A stretch of DNA of 58,938 nt, filler included, from Dugesia japonica (Eukaryota), in NCBI GenBank assembly GCA_001938525.1. It is 6 parts of 6 records of this genome, joined end to end, with 100 filler letters (N's around TTAATTAATTAA, not from the genome) between each part and the next. Parts side by side here need not be neighbours in the genome. Positions count along the whole stretch, not along the records: positions 43,956 to 58,938 come from MQRL01607775.1; 5 more parts are not named here. The stretch is one strand, 5' to 3'. Under the pieces are notes generated by a model that saw nothing but the letters and a program-made list of their open reading frames with translations, ran no database searches and was not told where the DNA came from. A program made the position numbers and the translations under genes. Below, one piece after another: positions 43,956-58,938 of this stretch. Each line of letters starts with the position of its first letter. Within the stretch, counting starts at the first letter, position 1.

Positions 43956-44437
43956 GAAATTATCTACCAAATTCCCCTGAATCACCCAAAAATCGACCTT
44001 ATTCGACCTTACCGACGGAATTTTGGACAAAACCACCTAAAAACAATAAAAATTGACCTTATTCGATTTCACCAAATGAATTTCCAATTAAAAAGCCTAA
44101 AAAATATTGCTGCTTAAAAAGCCTAAAAAATTTTCCCAACTAAATACACATGAATAAATAACACCACATTACCGCTTAAAAAGCCTAAAAAAATTTTCCC
44201 AACTAAATGCGTAAAATTTCACCGATAAAATTAATCTCATGACATAATTTGTGTGCAAAAGATTTTCCCAACTAAATACACAGGGAAAAAGTAACACCAA
44301 ATTAAGTACTATTACGTAAAAATGTAATTTTTAAATTCCCAACTAAATACATTAGGATTATATTTCATTACGTTACGTCACGGCGTGGGAGGACTACTGA
44401 ATGTGTGCATGGTGCGGACTGCTACTATCTATCTACT
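43956..44437. mobile_element. Polinton/Maverick-like terminus inserted into a Gypsy integrase
   Basis: Ends in ACTATCTATCTACT (44437), the same terminus as 52382. Internal repeats TTCCCAACTAAAT x4, AAAAAGCCTAAAAAA x3, GACCTTATTCGA x2. The Gypsy IN frame is cut exactly at the junction. Confidence 0.65.
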
Positions 44438-45185
44438 CCCGTCATCTCTCTTCAATAAGTATCTTCGATCGTTTACTTTTTTTACTATCTGGTAAGGCCC
44501 CTCAAAACGTTTTTGGTCTTTATTCCTGTTTTCGCTCCTTACTGACACTTCCTCTCGATCTTCGAAAGTTCTTTTGGTTGTCGTCTTTGGTGCCGTGTTC
44601 TCTGCTACATGTTGATTCCAGTTTTCCCTTGCTATTTTTTCCAAAGATAAATTCCGCAAGACTGGTATTTATAGATTTTTGCCACGTCGAATTTAATGCA
44701 AATTCTATTTCTGGCAGTAATTCAGCCCAATTTCTGTCTTCTAATGTTGCATTTAACAAATACCGTACTGTCCTTAACTGTCTCTCAATTTGCCCATTCG
44801 TATTATGGTGGTACGGGCTCGAAAAACATAATTCTACGTTCCATCTCTTGGAAAATTCGTCCATTGCCTTCGATTCAAAAGACCGTCCACAGTCCACGTG
44901 AATTCGCATTGGACAGCCAAACTTGATTAGCCAATTATGCAAAATAACTTTCTGCATTGTGTTGTCATCTTGCTTGTGGATTGCTACCAACAACATGTAC
45001 TTGCTACATTGGTCTATTATTCCGAGGATATACTTCATCTGTCTCGTCGTCTCCTTGAATGNNNNNNNNNNNNNNNNNNNNNNNNNNNNNNNNNNNNNNN
45101 NNNNNNNNNNNNNNNNNNNNNNNNNNNNNNAGACTTTGTGTTTCTGACATGCCTGGCATGCGCTTATGATTTGTCTGATCTTTGT
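44438..45185 (-). mobile_element. Gypsy integrase remnant
   Basis: CQACQK zinc motif; KYILGIIDQCSKY..FGCPMRIHVDCGRSF..SPYHHNTNGQIERQLRTV; RFEGPYQIV. Confidence 0.9.
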
Positions 45186-46869
45186 CTTCAGATTCTTTAT
45201 TTCAGATTTCTTTTTTTCAGATTTCTTTTTTTCAGATTCAGAACCTTCAATTCAAGAAAATCTTCTCTTATGTCGAAGCTAATCGAGAATTCATATCCAG
45301 TCTATTTATATGTGATTATACAAATTTATATATTATTATAGAACTATTTAATATTTAAACATGTGTAAAAAAACTTCCACAAGGAAATTAAAATTTTAAC
45401 TTAATTTATCAATTTAATTAAAGTTTTTCTAATTCAAAAGTTAATGACAATTTGAGGAAAAATTAAAAAATAAATGACCACTAAGTTAAAATCAAAAACT
45501 AATGACTACTGGCAAGAAATCAAATTTTAGTACTCATTTCTAGAGAATTCTTTATTTAACTGGTTAAATTAGCTTTTATGTACACTCTTTGTGCGTAAAT
45601 TCACATACGGGTACACCTTACACGTTCATCAACCTCGAAAATTCTTTAGTCATCTGAGCTAACTTTGTGCGTTTGTTCATTAACATATTTTATTTAGTTT
45701 AGTAGTATATGAATACATGTCATGCACTCAGCAACTTATATGATTACGTAAGATTTTTGTCCCCAAAGTACACAGTTTGTGTCTACATTCATCTGCCCGT
45801 ACATTTAATGTGCACTTTAGTCACCTATTAGCACACCTTTTCCCCTCATTAATCATTAATATCACTTCATTTGTATATGAGTTCACTAATCATATTCTTT
45901 ATCTCAGTGAGTGGACATATATCCTTTGTGTACGCAATTTTGTTTATTTAAAAAGTTTTATGTGAAATGTGTGGGTACATTTGTTTTTACATTCAACTAC
46001 TTATTCCTTTTTTGTATTTTGGTCATCTATGATCTCATTTCAAGCACTCCTAATCTTATTTGATACCCTAGTTATTTATAAGCTTATTACAAGTGCTCAT
46101 CTATTTATATTTATCCATAATTTAACTGCGTATCCACTTTTTTATTGATCATGAAAGGACAATTCATATTATTTTGTACTTTTTTGGTGTTTAATCCAGT
46201 ATTAAAATAGGTAATTAATTAATATTTCATTTTAATTAATTTTATTCTTTAGCAAATCTACGAAGAAGCAATTTCAATTAATCAAATAAAACTGAAGATT
46301 ATAATTTTGACTAATGAAAAAAATTGTTTTTTTGTCTCTTTGTGTATTATTATTTTTTATCCCTGAAAATTCAAATATTAATGCCCACTAAAGAGATTCT
46401 TAAACTTTGTGTCTATATTAATCTACTTAAACAGTTTAGTAGTTTACGAGCCTATTTATTGTTTTCTTCAACTCATGATAACTATGGATATTTATGAGAG
46501 AATTTCGTGCAATTATTAACAAGTAAAATCACCTAATTATCTAAAAGTACATTTCTCGTGCTCACCAGCTTATATTGCGATACTCATCCCTAAATTTTAA
46601 AAACCAACATTTTTTATTTTAAAATTTATAATAAAAAATGACAAACAAAATCAAAACATAAATTTGTATGTTTAAATCGAATTATAAGCACCTAAACATT
46701 TCTTAATTCCGACTGAAACTGATTATGTAAAAACTATTTAACAACTAAATAAAATTAAACTTTAGAAAATTATAATCATTCAATAATTTTAATTTATCTA
46801 TTCAAATTATATATGTTAGGTAGATCTTCAATTGGTAATTCATAAAAATAAAAAAACTATTATTTTTAA

Positions 46870-47380
46870 TTCATTGAATCCACATGCATTGAAGAGACTT
46901 CCCGTCATATTTGTTCAAGAATTCAAGAGCATCGTCGAGTAGGTAGTGTAAGTAGTATTGCTGAATATAATATTTATTGTAAATCAGTTATCAGTATAAA
47001 TAATTTTAAATTTTCCGGCAAAAACTTTCAAGATTATTGGGAAACTGTTGTATGTCAAGCATTGATGATTAGATCAATTGATTCAAAAATTACTGTTCCA
47101 ACTGTTCTTTCTAAATCTTTATTGAATGTTTTTAATTAATTTGATTTATTGAATAGATTGCATAATTGTTAACATAATCAGAATTTTTTTATATATATCA
47201 ATTTTTTTAAAAAAAGGAAAAAAGGAATAAATATTGTTCCAATAAAGAATTTTGAAAAAAGAATTAAATTATTGTATCTGAAGATGACAGATATTCTGTT
47301 GAAACATGTAATACAAAACTATATATTTAAATGGCGTTTCAAAGTTTATATTAAAATATTGCCATTTTTTCGATTATTTT
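46870..47380 (+). mobile_element. Penelope-like element 3' end (family B): GIY-YIG endonuclease plus pLTR
   Basis: STCIEETSRHICSRIQEHRR..SSIAEY..C...NNFK...YWETVVCQALMIRS is a decayed YIGET.R.L..R..EH GIY-YIG; a hammerhead follows ~140 nt after the stop. Confidence 0.85.
47272..47316 (+). ncRNA. Minimal type I hammerhead ribozyme (PLE family B)
   Basis: ttgtat-CTGAAGA-t-GACAGA tat TCTGTT-GAAA-catg-TA-atacaa. Perfect 6-bp stem I, 6-bp stem II (basal G-U), palindromic ACATGT stem III, GUA cleavage triplet. Confidence 0.85.
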
Positions 47381-47719
47381 AATTATATCATTATTTTTAA
47401 ATAAAAATAAAAATTATATCATAAATAATGGGAAACATTCATGCCTAAATATGGTTTTCTTAACACTACTCAAACGTTTAACTAAAACATCAATTAAAGA
47501 AATTAATTAATTTGACAAACGCAACTGTAAATAACAAAGGAATAATAAAAAATAAAAATTGACTAATAATTAAAGAATGACAGTAGCGCAAAGCCTTGCA
47601 TACCCTCCTGGGGGTGGAGTTTTTTAAAATTGGTGATAAATTTTTAAAAATAAATAAAAAAATAGTATTATTTTTTGAACAAACCTTTATAAGTGGCGCT
47701 AGTTTTTAGGATTTGTTAG

Positions 47720-47790
47720 CGGAAATTTTTGTGAGGTTGAATCAGGTCTATTTTGTGCTGGTTTAGGTGATAATTTACTTTGTGAGATCA
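47720..47790 (+). repeat. Dispersed repeat (GTGAGGTTGAATCAGGTC family)
   Basis: Matches 22585-22650. Confidence 0.6.
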
Positions 47791-48349
47791 AATGTGTGCA
47801 ACCTTGTCGTCTTAGGTGAATTCAATCATAAATAATTATAGATATTACTAAATCAAAGAAAATTAAGAGAAAATTGAATATCAGAGAAAAGAATTTGTTG
47901 AATAAATTAAAGAAAAATAAAGGAATAAAAACGATATCAATTGATAAAATAAACCATTACTTTTAAACAATAAAATAGAGAAATAACAATATTATAAAAG
48001 AAATTGCTCAAGATAATAATGCAAAACCAATTAAACGGTATATTATAAATTTTTATTTTGAATATCAATAAAGGTAATAATTGATGATTCTCGTACGAAT
48101 ATTTACTCCTTAATTGTAAATTTATCATTGATACATAAACGGAAATTCGAAATAAGTCAATTCTGATAATATCATAACAAAATTGTAATAATATTTCATA
48201 AACTTTAATAATAATATTTAATAAGACCAAATAGAAATACACAATTGTATATCTTCCAGAATATATTAATTGGCATTTCAACAAATACTTCTTACAACCT
48301 GAGTACCAGGGTAATTAATTTATTTTTGTAGTATACATTAATTAAAGCA

Positions 48350-49250
48350 TAACCATAGAAGTCAGGTTTTATAAGTATTGAAAAGAGGCGTACAAAACCA
48401 GAAATCTCATTTAAATAGTCTAAATAGTGTCCTTAGTGCCATCTATTTAGTAAGCAAATGTTGCTCTACTCAACATTGTTGACTATGTGATGTCAAGTGT
48501 AATAAAATATCTGAGTTCAAAACAAATGTTTGAGATTGATCAAAGAGTTGTGTACTTCATTGCACGTGACGTTAGACTAAATATTACTAGAAATTAAGTT
48601 GTCTTTTGAAAATTAATCTGGAGCCACAATTCGTAATTAAGTTACGTGTCACAATAACAGCGCAAATAAAGGTAATCTACTTAAATGATGTGTCTCATCT
48701 AAATACCAAATTTTGTGGTATTTACCGTGGGTATGCTGACTTTCATGAAAAACATTGTTTTTATAACCATGGCCATCTATTGGTTAACCATTGAACTGGC
48801 AATAGGTGTCTGCTCTTGTGTAGACAAGAGAGATGAGAAAGAATCACAACGTAGAAAATATGAGCATTCGTTCATTTGCTGCGTCAATTGAGTGAGGTAT
48901 CATAAATGATAGAATTGTAGCAATTGTTCATGATACTATATCTTAGCAATTAATCTGCCAAAATTNTTATGCAACCACGCTGTAATTAGCCATCAATTTT
49001 GCCTTAAGAGTAAAAACTATAGAAAATGTGTTGGGCGCTGTCTATTGCCTAACTTGACATTTTATGCACATTGTACTGTCAACTGAATCATTGCGTTCAA
49101 ATTAAGTAACACTGCGTAGAGTCGATACACTTTTATTTCTGTGACATGTTTCAACTCGGTCAGTACTTTGATTGGAATCAGTAATATCAATGCTCAATTA
49201 TCATTCTCTGGTTCTGCTGAATGACTCAATAGCTATATTTAGCAGAAAGA
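48350..49250 (+). mobile_element. Highly decayed hAT (ZBED1/Ac-like) transposase
   Basis: VVYFIARDVR...LEPQFVIKLRVTIT resembles hAT FI..D..P..GF..LEP.Y..PSR.TIT. Later traces resemble C..H.L.LAI and DV.TR.ST. Confidence 0.55.
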
Positions 49251-49407
49251 ATTAAAAAATAAGGCTTTTGCAGAAACAAACTTGAAGGCTTTTATTAAAA
49301 ACATATTATTGTTGATATTTTATTTAGTTTAAATTTAGTTTATGTAATAATTGAAAACATTATAAAGTAGTTTTGTCGTATATATAAAGTTCAGAACTAG
49401 ATCCATA

Positions 49408-49485
49408 TTTTATAATTACAATTATTGTGAGAATAATTGTTGGACTTAACCATTGATCGCATTTGAGATTTCATTAAAATAAGAA
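49408..49485 (-). repeat. PLE family A pLTR fragment
   Basis: Nearly identical to 53528-53605. Confidence 0.8.
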
Positions 49486-51419
49486 ATTTTTCTTATTTTA
49501 ATAGATCCATATTGTTCTACGTTTTTATGGTACTTAAGCAGTTACCTTAACTTTACTGAAATATATGAGGTCCAGCAAAACCTATTGTTGATCCACATTT
49601 ATGTGCGTGGCTGAAATGAATATTAGTGATTATCAATCAATGATGTCAATATAGTTTTTTGCTTAGGAGTCTGGTTTTTCGATAAAATTAATATTCATTA
49701 AAAATACTAAAAGTACTTAAACTTTTCAAGTTCCTCAAAACGTTTACAGATCTCAAAAAAAAATTATTTACCATAACATAGTTTTCAAGATACTTTTCAA
49801 GCATAATCCAAAAACTATTGAATGTTTATGGCTTAAATTGCAGTCAATTNAAAAAATTATGGTTTGAAAATAATTTAATTTAAAAACAAAAAAAAAGTAT
49901 ACAGAAAGCTTAGCATAAAAATAATTCGCATTGATATAGTTTATTATATTTCTAATTTTGATTTAACTTATTTTTGATTGTTTCCATTATAACTTTATGA
50001 AAACAAAAATGGTGAGTGGAAATCAGAACAGTGGCCATAAAATGTTTGATTTCTAATTAACATTTATTCACTTAACCAAGACTTAATCCAGAAAAGAAAA
50101 GTTACAGAAATTATCAGAAATTACAGATATAAAAAACAAAAACCTAAGTAAACTGATTCATTGAAAGAATTAAGGAAACCTCCAAAACTATTAGATTTTC
50201 ATTATTAAATAGGATTAAAAAAAAGGTTCAACTTGTTTATCATAAATTTATTTTGATATAATTATATTTATTGAAATTTGGTAAAGTTATTATTTTCTTT
50301 ATTATTTTAAATAAAATTTTTAATTTTATAACTAATATTTGACATTAATAAACTTTATAATTTCTTTATATAATTAAGAATCCTATGCAATTTGAAAATA
50401 TTATCTGGATAACGACAAAGTTCAACACAAGAGTTCCTTTTATAAATGGATATAAGTTTGAGAAAGCATCGATTTATAAAGAATGTATTTATTGGAGATT
50501 CATTAATTCAGAATGCAATGTAAAATTGAAAACAAGCTCTGATGCTTTGATCTCCATTAATGGAGTTCACATTCATATCAACAGGCAGAGAGCAATTTCA
50601 ACTGTGAAATAAAGAAAATGGTGGCTACTCACCTTTTCTATTCTGCAAAAAAATATACGATGTGATAAAAATAAAAATGAATGCGTTGCTGGTTGAAAAC
50701 GCAGATAAAACAGCGATATTGAACAACATGCGATCGTTTGACAGTATAAAATAGTCAATTTATTCTCAAAAACACAAAATGTATTCAGTGATAAAGAACA
50801 ATAGATAATAATTACTGGATTTCCATTGACTGGGAGAAGATAGATAGTGGCACACGGGCACAATTTGGTAATGAGCCAAAATTTAGGCACTATTATTTTT
50901 AAGCAGTTATCGAGCCCCCTCCCCCGGTGGGGCTCAGAAACACATTACGCTTAAGCTGCGTTTTTTAACCATGATTTTTGTGATCGATTTTTTTTCTAAG
51001 ATTTTTAGGATCAAAAAACTTTTGATCGGATCAAATTTTTTTTTGATCTGATTAGTTTTTTTGATCCTGAAGGTGTGTGTGTATTTTAAAATTTTCTTTG
51101 TGTTTGGGTTGTTAAGGTGCTTTTAGAAAAGTAGGTCAAGTTTAGTTTGTGTGTGTAGTAGTGTGTGTGTATGTGTGTAAAAGACTGAAAAAACGAGGAG
51201 GAGTACCTGGAGATCTTGGAGGTAATTTTTTTTTGATTTTGAAGATTTATTTCTTGTCGGACAAAAGTTTGGTCTATATATTGTCTAAAGGACTTATGAG
51301 TTTGGATGGATGGTTTTCATCACAAGGGTAGTGGCACATGGGCACAAAATATGAGTTATCGTGGGGGGGTTTTCTTTTGGTTGTAGTTTTTTATGTTGTT
51401 GATGGAATTTGTAGTTTGA

Positions 51420-51520
51420 TGGAAATTCAAAAAAACTTATTTTGGCGGCAAATTCAAAAAAAATTATTTTGGCAAGGAAATTCAAAAAAAATTATTTTGG
51501 CGGGAAATTGAAAAAAAGGA
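51420..51520. repeat. ~28-bp tandem repeat x3.5
   Basis: GGAAATTCAAAAAAAATTATTTTGGC units. Confidence 0.8.
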
Positions 51521-52200
51521 AATTTTTCATTGCAATGGGGGGAAATCTTTTATTGCAATTAANNNNNNNNNNNNNNNNNNNNNNNNNNNNNNNNNNNNNN
51601 NNNNNNNNNNNNNNNNNNNNNNNNNNNNNNNNNNNNNNNNNNNNNNNNNNNNNNNNNNNNNNNNNNNNNNNNNNNNNNNNNNNNNNNNNNNNAGATATTA
51701 ATGAATGTAATATATGATTTATGAGTGTAATATTTGTATATTTACATTGTATTATTTACTTAGCAGTTATGTAATATAGGTTTTATGAGTACATCATTTA
51801 CTTAACAACTATGTATTTTTTTCTCTAATAACTGTGTAATATAAGGCTTATGAGGGTTTTTTACGTAGAATAGTTTGATTATCATTTTCTTTTCTCGATT
51901 TTCTTTAATTAATTCATAATTTAGTATATTATTTTAACGAATGAATTAAATTAAATTCATCAAAACACCAATGTTCCTCTTTATTTCATTAATTATGATA
52001 ATCAATGTTTAATACAAAGGTGAAATGATGCAAAGAAAATAAGCTTTCCTACAGGCAAACCATTTCAATTTAAAGTCAAAATCGACAAATTTACAATTAT
52101 GTACTTAAGATCAATAAAATTTTGAATAATGAGTTGTAAGATAATGGCGCGTATCCCCTCTTGATTTTATCCCTAAAAAGGCCTCCCCCTTTTTTAACAA

Positions 52201-52320
52201 GAGGATAAAAATTTAAAAGAAATTAAAAAAGGGGATAAAATTTTTAAAAGAAATTAAAAAAGGGGATAAAAATTTAAAAGAAATTTAAAAAGGGGATAAA
52301 ATTTTTAAAAGAAATTTAAA
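52201..52320. repeat. 30-31-bp tandem repeat x4
   Basis: GGGGATAAAA(A/T)TTTAAAAGAAATTAAAAAA units abutting the right TIR. Confidence 0.9.
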
Positions 52321-52649
52321 ATAATTGTGCTCGAATTTTGGCTCATTGCCAAAATGTACCCGTGTGCCACTATCTATCTACTAATGGGGTAAAAAGAAAA
52401 TATATAGATACAAGAATTAACAACTTAAAAAGTCTATTGGTTGATGATGAAAATTATTCATTGATAAGTTATATGATCAATATAATTAATGCGATAAAAT
52501 TTATAATTGAATAAATAAAATTTCATTTTATTTCAATTTTTATTTTTTGATATTTGTATTAAATCTTTAAAAATTTGTAATTTTTATCAACAATTTTTAA
52601 TATCAATTTTTGCAGTAATTTGATTAAATCTTTAAAAATTTAAATTAAG

Positions 52650-53220
52650 ATGTTATGGCCAATAAAAAGACACCAAATAAAAAGATGAGAAAATAATGTT
52701 ATGTTATGTCGTCTTATAAACACATTGTTTTTATGGATGAAACTGGTTTTAAGTTATATACCTCAATCAATGTTGGATATTCATCAGATAATATGAAATG
52801 AATATTACGTCAACTGATTAAAAGGTAACAATCTTTCTATAGTGTTTAGTAATATGTATAACTGCAAAACAAACATGACATGCTTATAAAGAGCCTTTAC
52901 TAAATATACATTCTTAAATTTCTTAAATCAATGTTTCAAAAAAAACATATTCACTAATGTATATATTGTGCTTATGGACAATATGAGATTTCATAATTGT
53001 CGTGAAATATAGGATTTTTTTAGACAAAAATAATGTTACGCCCGTTTATTTGCTTCTATAATGTACAAATTTCAATTCAACAAACAAATTATGTTTATCC
53101 TAATTAGATTTTGTGCAGTTAACTATGCACAATTATGAATCAATATTCAAGGGGTTTTGAATGTTTTAAAAGAACAAGATATTTCTTGTTACTATGAACA
53201 TTTCTGGAGTAAATTTAATA
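52650..53220 (+). mobile_element. Tc1/IS630-like transposase remnant
   Basis: HIVFMDETGFKLYTS..GYS; GNNLSI; IVLMDNMRFH. Confidence 0.75.
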
Positions 53221-53317
53221 ATTCTACAATTACTATAATTGCTAGAGTAATTGTTGAGCATAAACATTAATCTTTTTTGGGATTTTATTAAAATAAAGCT
53301 TCGATCAAATCGACTTC

Positions 53318-53352
53318 AATTCCTGACGAAGACAAAGTCGAAAATTAGAATT
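53318..53352 (+). ncRNA. Minimal type I hammerhead ribozyme (PLE family A)
   Basis: aattc-CTGACGA-a-GAC aaa GTC-GAAA-at-TA-gaatt. 5-bp stem I, palindromic AATT stem III, UUA triplet. Confidence 0.8.
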
Positions 53353-53640
53353 TTCATCACAAAACAAAAATAAATTTGAATGAAGTTTTATTATTGAAAG
53401 TTTTATTTTATCAAATCTAAAATTAATAAATTGAATTTAAACCAGTTTTAAAATTTATTTCTTTTTATTTGTGTTTATTTATTTATGAAATTTTGTTCAT
53501 CTTTTATGAAATTGACTGTAAATGAACTTTTATAATTACAATTATTGAGAGAATAATTGTTGGACTTAACCATTGATCGCATTTGAGATTTCATTAAAAT
53601 AAAGAAAAAGCTTCGATCAAATTAAAATATATATTTTTAG

Positions 53641-53678
53641 ATATTCAAATTTTCGACAATTGTCTTCTTCATGAATAT
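53641..53678 (-). ncRNA. Hammerhead copy with C3-to-A core mutation (probably inactive)
   Basis: Minus strand: atattc-ATGAAGA-a-GAC aatt GTC-GAAA-at-TT-gaatat. Confidence 0.6.
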
Positions 53679-54699
53679 GATGATTTTTGGAAACTTTTCC
53701 TGTCAATGCAAACTCTTTATCATATTATTCAGTAAATTGTTAACTTAAATAATTTTAAGTGCTTAAAATGAAAAGCGACAAAGTATAATAAATTTACTGT
53801 CATTTTATTTAAACTGGAATAAATGTAATACTTGAAAAGAAAAATGTGAGAAATCACACATCGTTTCTGGTTAAATACGTAGTCGAAATATAAAATGTCA
53901 ACATTGTACTGCCCTCTGAAATGACATTGTGGTGTTAAAATATTATTGAATATATCAAAATAAAACTAAAGCGTAAAAGTATACCGGTAAATATTGTAAG
54001 CAACGCAAATCCTTACATTTTTAACTTAAAAGAAAATATTTTGAATCGATTTTATTAGCTAATTTAATAATAAAATTATAAATACAAANCAAACTTTTTT
54101 TCAATGGAAAATATTTACACCGTATTAAAATAAATAAATAAAACTGACAGACTTATTATTACTTGATAATTTCTTCATTATTTAACTTCATTATATAAAT
54201 GAATATTCTTGTTAATTAAATATTCAGTTGTATTTAAACAAAACTAATAATATTTAATGTAAAATTTACTTTTATAAAATATTTAAAAATTAATTATAAT
54301 AGCAAAATCGATTGATACTACTATGGATTTATATCTATCTTTTATTAATTAATTTCCGATAATTTCTATAATAAATTAATGAGAATTCAATATTGCTAAG
54401 TGTAAAATGTTTGTTATTCGTATATTCTTAATAGGTTTCTTTGAATAACCATTATCATAAATAACTAAAATTTTATTTCTAGAATTTTTAATAAGAAATT
54501 GAAATAAAATAATTCTAATCGATATTTTAATTATTTATTATTTTTTTCCTTATATTTATCATCATCATCATCATTATGAGGAAATAATTATTAACTAATA
54601 ATTCCACCCAATAGAAATTGAGTTATATAAATATTAATATTGAAATGCTTGTATTTTAATATTATTTATATTATGCAAGATGTGTTGTAGTAGTAAAAT

Positions 54700-55330
54700 A
54701 AATGATGTCTCAAAGTATTAGTAGTGATTTGCAAAAGGAATTAACAATTGAATATTTACCTAACATGGTGATAGCAGTAAATACCGATTCTATTATAGAG
54801 AGGTTATTGCCGAATGTGTTCTGCAGAAATTCATCAAACAGTGTGAATTTTAATAATCCATCTGAAACAACAGGAGAGATTAGTCTCTTGTTTGTTAGAT
54901 GTAGATTTGTTTGAAGAATTTGCAAAGACGTCGAAAAAATGTGAAAGGTTTTTAGGCTCGTTTACTTATGGCATTTGAAAAAGAGAAAGATTTTATCAAA
55001 TATTTTCAAAATTTTATTAACTACAGTCGTAGAGAGATTCCAATGAAGAGATTTAAGTTTATTTCAAAATTGTAAAATATTTAGTAAAAAGATTATTTGC
55101 AAATAAAGATTTTACCGATGAAAAAATGGTAGAAAAGATGCTAATATATTGTTCAGATAAGTAAAAGGTTGAAGAAGTCACTTTGCGGAAACGAGAAAAT
55201 ATAGAGGAAATTGAAGAAACAGTGATATTAGTAGATAAATAGGGAATATCAGAGATCGAGTTGATGCAGTTAGAAGTTACGCGAGAGTTACAAATCGAAA
55301 TAATTACAGTAAATGTAGAGCAAAGAAAGG
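54700..55330 (+). mobile_element. Gypsy gag remnant, same family as 15232-15986
   Basis: MAFEKEKDFIKYFQNFINY..LVKRLFANKDFTDEKMVEKMLIYCSD..RVDAVRSYARV versus MAFEKEKYVIKYFENLINY..LVKRLFTNKYFTEEK..QVDAVRSNARV. Confidence 0.8.
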
Positions 55331-55379
55331 GTAATTAGTAAATAAGTAAAAAGTGGGTAATAAGTAAATATTTTGATAT

Positions 55380-56030
55380 CTAAAGGGTTAATGAGTGTAT
55401 AACGTTTATGAGTATATTATTTGCATAGTTACTCTGGATTATAGGGTTTATGAGTGTATTTTTTGTATAGTTACCTTGTATTACTTACTTAGCAGTCGTT
55501 ATATATATATGTGTGTGTGTGTTTTGTGTGTATTATTTACATACTTACTATGTATTATAGGGTTTATGAATATATTATTTACATTTTAACCGTGCAATAT
55601 AAGCTTAGCGAGTGTATTATATACATTNNNNNNNNNNNCTATATGATTTATGTTTGAATTATTTACAAAGCCATCATGAAATATAAGGTATATGTGTGCA
55701 TTATTTACATAGAAACCCTGTATTATAGAGTTAATGAGTATATTATTTACATATTAATCGTGTAATATAAGGTTAACAAGTGTATTATTTACATATGAAC
55801 TATGAAATATATGGTTTATAAGGTTATTATTTTAATAGGTACCTTAACTTATAGAGTTTATTTATAATATTCAGATAACAAATCATAGTTATCATGTTTT
55901 ATTTACTTGACAACCATGAAATATATGGTTCATGAGTTTATTATTTGTGTAGTTACCTTGTATTATATACATAGTAACCGTGTAATATAAGGTTAACGAG
56001 TGTATTATTTACATAGTAACCATGTGTTGT
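55380..56030. repeat. Degenerate ~42-bp satellite array
   Basis: Consensus about TGTATTATTTACATAGTAACCGTGTAATATAAGGTTAACGAG; related units at 51694-51860. Confidence 0.8.
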
Positions 56031-56864
56031 ATAGTCTACAAACAAATCAGATATCAAGATCTATTTACAACTTCATGCGGTCAACAATGTTTATTATGGT
56101 TGAAAAAAACAACATTGTACTTGACAATATTTATTTGTTTTTTTTGTAAAAATTAAATGTTTTTTATTGAAATGAAATCTTTGTTATTTATTAAAACTAA
56201 GAATAAAAAGAATAAAACAGCATTTATTTATAAAATATTTGTAAATAATATCATATTAATACATGTTTTTATTATTATTTTGATACGTTTTATTATCAAA
56301 AAATTAAAATTATTTTAAAATACTGCAACGTAATATATCTGTAATGTTTTAAATTAATTTGAAATTTTAAAATACGCACATACTCGAATTTGATTGGTTA
56401 GATTTGAAAACCTTGAAAAAATTTATTATTATTCATCCCAATTTCAAATTATTTTTATAAAACCAGTAAACAAATTCAAGAGAACTTCAAGTAATTTATT
56501 AATATTATTACCATTATTAACTTTTATTTTTAGAATTATCATGAAAAGAAGACTTATTTCAACTATGAATGCTGTAAGATTGTTATTATTTATTATTATT
56601 AATAAATTAATTATGTAGTTTAGAATTTTAACGAAATGAGACATGAAAGTGAAGGATCTTGGATGTTTGTGAATGGAGATTCGCGAAAGTTTTTTTAATA
56701 TTATTTTAAAAAGTTAAATTTTATTAAAATTTTAAAAACTATTATGAAAAACAAATATTCCATGTCGATTTCCATGATATGTTCCATGATATGATAATAT
56801 GAAGAAATGCTCTATGTTTCTTTTAATGAAAAGGTTCTATTCTTTTATCATTTTTCTGAGAAAA

Positions 56865-57002
56865 TTGTATCGCTAATATGATTTATTTTGGAACATTGCA
56901 TCACCAATATGATTTATTTTAGAAAATTGCAACGCTAATGAGATTTTATATTAAAAATTGCGTCACTGATGAGATTTACTTTGAAAACTTGCATCACTAA
57001 TC
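56865..57002. repeat. 31-bp tandem repeat x4.5
   Basis: TTGCATCACTAATR(T/A)GATTTATTTTRGAAAA units at 31-nt period. Confidence 0.8.
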
Positions 57003-57332
57003 AGAACATTGTAAATTTTAAAACCATTGCGCAAGTGCGAGTCACAATGGTGACTGCCATAGTATCATGGAAGGATACTATGGCCAATGGTTTTATGGAA
57101 AAAATTATTTTGTGCTTCCTAATTGTAAGGTATTAGGTTTAGGTGACTACTTAAGTTTTTATAGGACACATAAGAAACACTTAAGTTTTTTTAGTGAACG
57201 TAAAAAAATAGTTTAAAATCAATATTAGATAGACAGATAGATAGTGAGTTTTATGAAGCACCAGTAAATAAGAGAATTNNNNNNNNNNNNNNNNNNNNNN
57301 NNNNNNNNNNNNNNNNNNNNNNNNNNNNNNNN

Positions 57333-58612
57333 GATGACGTTAAAGAAATAATAATCAAGGATGAACCAGTTGAAATAATTGAATATGTTGTTGAATAAAT
57401 CATCAATTTAAAACCGGAAGAAGAAACAGCCAATATTGTACAAGAAGAAGATACAATCAATACTAAATCATATGATTTGAACAGTTTTGAAGTACTTGAT
57501 GATCTTGATGAAGAAGATATCGTGTTACAACAATTTATGGATGCAGAAGCGGAAAATAATAATCAAGTTGGTGGATCAGCAAATAATACTGTGGATGATG
57601 TAGTTATTATAGAATCAGATTTGTATCGCTGTTCATAGGATACTTAAAATAGATGTTTCAAGACGGAATTGTTGTGAAATAATTTTACCAGAAGCAATAG
57701 TTGCAAAATTATTTCAGACAATAGAAGAAATGAAACAGGTTGAAATTCNNNNNNNNNNNNNNNNNNNNNNNNNNNNNNNNNNNNNNNNNNNNNNNNNNTA
57801 AAACCTGTAAAATATTGAATAGAGCCGTTGCATTATCTGATAACTTTTTTAAAGATGGTATCATACAATTAATTGAAAAAATAACAATACGAAGCAAACT
57901 AGGCTCCAGTTGTATGTTGAATCGAATACTAGAAATTATTTTTAAGATCACAGATATATGTTAACTTTCAGGAAAAAGTTATATTCCAAAACCAAACGAT
58001 TTAAAAAAGGAAAGAGGCCATTGTAAACATCAAGAACGATGACAATAACTGTTTTATTTACAGTATTCTTGCTATCGTCAAAAAAGATCAAGTTAGAGGA
58101 AGGAAAAAACACCGCATAACATTATACAAAAAATACATGTCGGAGCTTGTATTTGACAAAGAGAATATGCCGATGAAACTGAATAATATAATAAAGTTCG
58201 AAAAGAATAATCTAGGACTATAAAACAATGTTCTATCGTGGAATCAAGAATCGGTGAAGTATAAAGAAGATGAAGTAATCATGAAACATCTGAATTTGGA
58301 CATAAGATACAGGTCAAAAGTGATAGACCGATAAATAATATATCTGGTTTTACATGAAAATAACAACAGATTTCATTACACCGCAGTAATGAACATAAAT
58401 CAACTAATAAACAGGGATAATAAAGGGCAGGGTGTTCTTATTTGATCTACATGGTGTCCTAACTGTCTAAACGGGTTCAAAGATAAANNNACTTATGAGA
58501 AGCATGAACCAATTTGCAAAAGAAAATCCAGACAGGTACTACCGTGTATATAGACGAACTTGATTTTTAAGGATTATTCAAAAGCAATAACGCCGCTTTT
58601 TGTTATATATAG
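57333..58612 (+). mobile_element. Polinton/Maverick (adintovirus-like) protein-primed DNA polymerase B, N-terminal pseudogene fragment
   Basis: GSSC(GSGW-like)..SYIPKP..AIVNIKNDDNNCFIYSILA..PMKLNNIIKFEKNN..NVL..FHYTAVMNINQLI..WCPNCLNGF..EKHEPIC..FKDYSKAITPLFVIYS, the Polinton PolB N-terminal motif series ending at ExoI (PFVIYADFE). Stops and frameshifts present. Confidence 0.85.
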
Positions 58613-58865
58613 TATTTTTTATTTGTTTACATATGTTATTTTAATTATGTGTTATTTATATTATGATGATAATAAAAGAAAATAATGTAAAAAAACATTT
58701 ATGAAAGTATAACCGGTCCTCTTTAGGACCAAAATTGTACATTGATTGTATATTGATGAATAGAATATGCCTTTATTATTTTATTCGTTTCAGTTTTTTA
58801 TTAGTTTTGTTTTAAAATTATTATTTATTACGGTTTTTGTTATGTATTAAAGAAGAAGAAAAAAA

Positions 58866-58874
58866 TCATCATCG

Positions 58875-58938
<64 letters not shown>
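58866..58938. repeat. (CAT)n microsatellite
   Basis: Seen directly. Confidence 0.95.

Follow-up and report, generated by a model that had tools for sequence, protein, structure and literature searches.

A 1.5-kb element on contig G000:C607775 of Dugesia japonica (43956–58938 of the window, the whole 58,938-nt stretch of DNA analysed here) carries the ends of a Polinton/Maverick, a group whose members measure 15–25 kb (PMC6431247). The locus raises the question of whether such a small element belongs to a mobile short family, as a preliminary description proposed, or arose by other means. Comparison with the assembly (854 Mb, 648,594 contigs) showed that the element is real but most probably an ordinary Polinton chimera, formed only once and by deletion. 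Coordinates are those of the window, and stranded features lie on the plus strand unless stated otherwise.

Termini and host site

Polintons/Mavericks have AG..CT termini, terminal inverted repeats (TIRs), and a 6-bp target-site duplication (TSD) (PMC8097293, PMC3014272). The two TIRs of the element (50835–50902 and, on the minus strand, 52315–52382) are inverted repeats of 68 nt, 87% alike with 9 mismatches, which bears out the ~65-bp TIRs reported for it. The left TIR is a Polinton-type terminus of a family that we call A, with its third base mutated. The exact 24-mer terminus of this family occurs 221 times genome-wide and 0 times in the control. Inverted-repeat comparison identified the right TIR as a family-A terminus cut to 68 bp. 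The short-repeat end described for the element was found at the right end alone, which reads AGTAGATAGATAG (AGTAG), whereas the left end reads AGAAGATAGATAG (AGAAG); AG..CT ends are present, the left one with one mutation. Compared with 42 other termini, 3–4 letters of each TIR are rare or do not occur at all, which points to an old insertion.

The 6-bp TSD was likewise confirmed. Its copies, ACTGGG (50829–50834) and AATGGG (52383–52388), were read from the sequence and match at 5/6 positions; at least 5/6 matches are expected by chance at ~1e-3 under the local composition. A 6/6 TSD flanks another element, L268 of a second family (B). The evidence supports the view that the ends of the element are real and of Polinton origin.

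The element lies in a decayed FLYWCH-MULE transposase copy. Its left side (50361–50834; FLYWCH, E 3.6e-4) has a deletion of ~800–870 bp, and the C-terminal end of the same copy follows on the right (52389–52480, by paralog alignment). Paralogs of this copy match MULE at E 1e-10. Eight of them span the empty site; 5 agree in length and register with the window sequence once the element is taken out, and 3 are 9 bases shorter. The proposal that excision restores the MULE frame therefore holds for length and register, but the frame itself is closed: a stop lies 9 codons upstream of the site, and the ~800–870 bp present in paralogs are missing just before it. A near-identical segment of ~75 bp brackets the MULE region (49383–49490 and 53525–53600). 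It is also present at the end of the continuation of locus L039 and is possibly a small insertion element.

Three-part make-up of the element

The left arm (50835–52141) belongs to family A, which is multi-copy and internally deleted. It is 85–93% identical to all 29 sister loci over 51705–52141. The match runs up to 52141 in 25 of the 29 fetched sisters, which then continue into the rest of a TBP-like gene that is absent in the window; it stops before 52141 in the other 4. A query of 51700–52320 gave no other match past 52141 among the best 40 of 2713 candidates. The exact 49-mer terminus had 55 matches, and no contig carried two. Among 49 distinct A termini, 38 led into an A arm, 2 into related arms, 8 were too short, and 1 led into B repeats, this last being the right end of the window element itself. 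None of the 40 other informative A termini ran into family-B repeats.

Several features were annotated in this arm. The GC hairpin reported earlier was recovered at 50906–50945, with a predicted fold of −9.3 kcal/mol (calculated without a shuffle control), and the C-run at its start recurs in sister termini. An internal terminus-like direct repeat (51326–51347) is a family feature, present in 11 of 12 sister arms examined. Repeat and motif scans placed a 27-bp tandem array with three putative E2F/CHR-like motifs at 51421–51517, and imperfect ~64-bp repeats (51705–51857, repeat scan) form the end of the repeat arm. Tandem repeats had been claimed, and both this 27-bp array and a 31-bp array at 52199–52321 agree with that. 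The contents are not just repeats and a hairpin, because 51950–52141 holds what is left of the 5′ part of a TBP-like Polinton gene, broken by stops, a frameshift near 52030, and a cut at 52141. With this relic inside, the element is not non-coding by origin. No pPolB, rve integrase, ATPase, or jelly-roll capsid protein was found within the element.

The reported size of ~1.5 kb is unreliable. The assembly gap at 51563–51692 (130 N) is probably under-sized: in 5/5 sister copies with both gap flanks, the corresponding interval measures 886–2222 bp, compared with 143 bp here. The interval inspected in one sister (L092) is repeat-rich and without a core gene, and loose ends behind 51562 in two public runs continue like this sister. 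By comparison with these copies, the gap likely hides 0.7–2.1 kb of further repeats rather than genes, and the true size of the element is likely 2.3–3.7 kb.

The right part of the element (52139–52321) is the end of family B minus its first ~7 bases and includes the 31-bp array. Exact family-B termini number 88 genome-wide and 0 in the control. The motif at 52142 was preceded by the A sequence of the window in 0/29 loci; most of these begin at the B terminus and have unrelated flanks. Both inner junctions are unique. The A/B junction had 1 match at ≤2 mismatches (control 1), and the junction between B and the right TIR matched itself and one 2-mismatch sequence without homology to the element. 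Microhomologies of 3 bp and 6 bp, shared with both partners, lie at the two joints. No other single match combined the B part with an A TIR among the best 40 of 1614 candidates. Contigs of 4 public runs confirm the left flank through the first two bases of the element, and none of those listed bridges the gap or the junctions at 52141 and 52320. The two junctions are consequently known from the present assembly only. No RNA run with the element was among the matches listed, which weighs neither way.

Elsewhere in the genome, family-B ends are clipped near the same base in L086 and L090, and in L086, L090, L065, L073, and L270 they are clipped alike or their termini stand head-to-head or back-to-back. 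Termini are often located in or beside other Polinton-type sequence. No core genes were found inside the arms at B ends in 20 loci. MCP-like (L273) and TBP-like (L279) pieces beside B ends were considered and rejected; they look like host sequence.

The deleted parent subfamily and its Polinton relatives

An older, family-wide deletion junction at 51870–51900 joins the repeat arm to the start region of an ATPase/TBP-like gene pair. It was spanned by 40/40 scored copies (best 40 of 470 candidates). Upstream of the TBP-like gene, all 29 closest sisters (85–93%) carry repeats in place of the ATPase; an ATPase match was found in 0/29 and a pPolB match within the locus in 1/29, many of these loci having little upstream sequence. 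Of 73 TBP-like gene starts, a sample chosen for resemblance to the window or for long frames and therefore no measure of the genome ratio, 45 were of the deleted type (window included), 17 had the ATPase, 6 were of other types, and 5 were too short. The terminus, arm, and TBP-like gene without core genes were found together, each with its own flank, in L095, L099, L106, L233, L258, L262, and L263. An internal deletion common to many copies with different flanks, a feature of non-autonomous subfamilies, is thus present in family A. Both A ends occurred in one copy only in the window element among 335 loci of this fragmented assembly.

The TBP-like gene connects the element to longer relatives. 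Intact paralogs match Pfam TBP (E 7e-11 to 1e-8) and also solved TBPs. The gene encodes ~150 aa and stands head-to-head with a packaging A32-like ATPase gene (L213, L215, L217, L222, L265). A tblastn-type search gave 4422 candidates, of which the best 150 were scored, and the protein has 20 database homologs. A figure legend in PMC8502044 lists a TBP-like gene among those of related MELD viruses. Relatives with this gene beside the ATPase share the TBP-like gene of the element at 74–79% DNA identity (L222, L217, L265). On one of them, the 5.8-kb contig of L222, pPolB, INT, ATPase, and TBP-like pieces occur together with a capsid-like and a penton-like one. L217 and L265 combine INT, ATPase, and TBP-like pieces, and L217, L219, and L265 show parts of the L222 gene order. 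The ATPase and integrase pieces have weak Pfam matches only (E 0.0016, 0.003). The capsid-like piece has an Atlas feature match but no Pfam or PDB match and no useful BLASTP match to the capsid of another element, and the penton-like piece has neither a Pfam nor an Atlas match; the capsid and penton labels are weak.

pPolB is abundant in the genome, with 97 matches from the best 91 of 7453 candidates, many of them without stops. None of 30 pPolB loci, nor any of 20 longer stretches taken from pPolB contigs, showed a family-A or family-B terminus; such contigs break at their ends. In L220, a related terminus (72% arm identity) is connected to ATPase and TBP-like genes. A near-complete adintovirus-like element was seen at L142–L143 (G000:C529426), in which Pfam identified pPolB, capsid, ATPase, and rve genes; its integrase ORF bears a phospholipase-A2-like domain. 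The Polinton reading of the window element is kept for the ends, and the interior is homologous to elements with A32-like ATPase, rve integrase, capsid-like, and pPolB pieces.

The idea that selection maintains the TBP-like gene in deleted copies found no support; many copies are broken near residue 76–78 or contain stops. Because it is broken in many deleted-type copies, the gene is probably a passenger there.

The shared deletion removed the block from the ATPase to the polymerase, and multi-kb defective copies likely spread via the enzymes of intact Polintons. A single deletion followed by spread would imply mobilisation in trans. We lean slightly towards a broader reading, in which defective A copies with one shared deletion and B copies with kb-long gene-free inverted arms reached hundreds of copies by borrowing the integrase and polymerase of intact Polintoviruses, the window copy being a TSD-bearing witness. 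The idea of a satellite-like parasite suits the 1.5-kb element less well than the multi-kb parent subfamily, with its deletion junction common to many copies. If true, the broader reading would describe an animal that naturally hosts a satellite or defective-genome system. Many copies with one enzyme-removing deletion would show trans mobilisation and mark what is needed in cis (ends and repeat arms). The movement of Polintons is not known to have been directly observed in animals. The parent subfamily bears on this movement; the element itself, one of many broken copies, matters little.

Inward-facing ends of one family were found among the 335 fetched loci only in the window element and in L268 (G000:C624400:3699–6008). 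L268 is a two-ended family-B element of 2310 bp with 39/40 matching ends and a perfect TSD (CACATG), without a marker gene. Its interior is common to 29/29 other fetched loci, none of which has a terminus at the same place, and its junction matched itself alone among the 335 loci. L268 is a one-off deletion product like the window element. Such short two-ended copies may be over-noticed, because a fragmented assembly can hold them whole. Elements of ~4.5–5.6 kb with long patchy inverted arms were also seen (oriented coordinates: L097 3656–8879, L320 56–5652, L324 1–4484). They have no Met-started ORF of at least 80 aa, and their outer ends are mostly cut off.

Origin of the element and comparison with known systems

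The three-part make-up, unique junctions, near-perfect 6-bp duplication, Polinton gene context, and private TIR mutations make it probable that the element is a single decayed chimera. It consists of an A left arm, a clipped B end, and a right A end reduced to a 68-bp stub. Its insertion into the MULE copy likely took place in trans, and its shortening likely came later. The inserted form may have been a multi-kb defective A copy that already lacked the ATPase-to-polymerase block, integrated by an integrase borrowed from an intact Polinton. A later microhomology-guided deletion or break repair would have removed most of the interior and the right arm, leaving the B end. A B copy may first have inserted itself near the right end, with two later deletions leaving the present B piece, or this piece may be filler copied during repair. 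The present copy would have no function of its own.

Some points weigh against this explanation. The assembly breaks in such repeats, so that sister chimeras may be missing, and only the best 40 candidates were scored. The inner junctions are not bridged by the listed public contigs, and among the 335 loci no second family-A copy was complete, with its two ends and a TSD. Of the 9 bases at the insertion site, 3–4 agree with the A-rich site of the paralogs, a greater difference than in the flanks. The similarly clipped B ends in L086 and L090 could mean a recurring process.

This last point also suits a rather unlikely alternative, in which the chimera formed extrachromosomally, much as a defective viral genome does, when protein-primed replication switched templates between an A and a B molecule; it would then have integrated a single time as it is. 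The start of the B piece ~7 bases inside the B terminus and the microhomologies at both joints agree with it, and the TSD fits either order of events. Deletion after insertion, however, explains the same sequence without the extra step.

We regard it as distinctly improbable that the short chimera was made once and then multiplied by Polinton enzymes into a mobile family of MITE-like or satellite type. In favour of this, the chimera has its two ends with a near-perfect TSD, repeats are under-represented in the assembly, and microhomology-made MITEs are known in other superfamilies (PMC3814204). Against this, both junctions are unique, no second B and A-TIR match appeared within the candidates scored, and the TIRs decayed independently. 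The many similar-sized copies with distinct TSDs expected of such a family were not found. The preliminary description had set its MITE-like family against a single-copy deletion product, and the unique junctions and the absence of A termini running into B repeats (0/40) show the latter. With unique junctions and a coding remnant inside, the element is not a MITE family.

A scaffolding error joining unrelated halves across the 130-N gap, or a full-length Polinton hidden in it, is very improbable: the element does span the gap and no listed contig crosses it, but the gap flanks are collinear in 5/5 sisters, the one interval inspected is repeat-rich without a core gene, the sequences on either side of the element come from neighbouring parts of a single MULE copy, and the TSD matches across the gap.

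The element resembles Polintons/Mavericks (Polintovirus, adintovirus) in its termini, TIRs, TSD, and relatives with INT, A32-like ATPase, and pPolB pieces. It differs in measuring a few kb at most, lacking core genes, fusing the ends of two families, and being single-copy. Kapitonov and Jurka are said to have described non-autonomous Polintons in 2006, and the N in Repbase names marks a non-autonomous family. Defective copies are common in vertebrates, where 96% of Maverick copies are defective (PMC8097293), and a zebrafish Polinton-1N1_DR is named in PMC9341505. Like such degraded or non-autonomous Polintons, the element has Polinton ends without coding capacity. Unlike Polinton-1N1_DR, it forms no family; its parent A, present in many copies, has long repeat arms and still contains a broken TBP-like gene. 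The literature searched, without most subscription papers, contained the named Polinton-1N1_DR and no study of defective multi-copy Polinton families.

The Gnome, Elf, and Goblin MITEs arose from Ozma by microhomology-mediated internal deletion with both ends kept (PMC3814204). The window element shares the deletion between short microhomologies and the retained ends, but it belongs to a different superfamily, contains foreign family-B filler, and was not amplified later. Transpovirons are linear and TIR-bounded, and a descent from Polinton-like viruses through the loss of genes has been suggested for them (PMC5499653). These properties are similar here, whereas the helicase and giant-virus particles of transpovirons were not seen. 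Further background is given in 10.1101/2025.02.07.637071, 10.1101/2024.01.15.575659, 10.1101/2021.04.08.439009, 10.1101/697771, PMC5753468, PMC4028283, and PMC11296320.

A pPolB relic and another terminus had been noted on the same contig. Both are present, but nothing ties either to the element. The terminus at 44437 belongs to a third family and lies beside an rve integrase piece (44520–45062). The relic (57333–58612, pPolB-like near 58000–58200) is 64–69% identical to pPolB loci, including L222. Upstream of it, 55400–57005 contains 42-bp and 31-bp repeat arrays, the 42-bp repeat resembling the interior repeats of family A. In a different stretch of the window, a terminus of the same type was found on the minus strand at 6769–6785, and the sequence beside it (6400–6785) is 70% alike to a pPolB locus.
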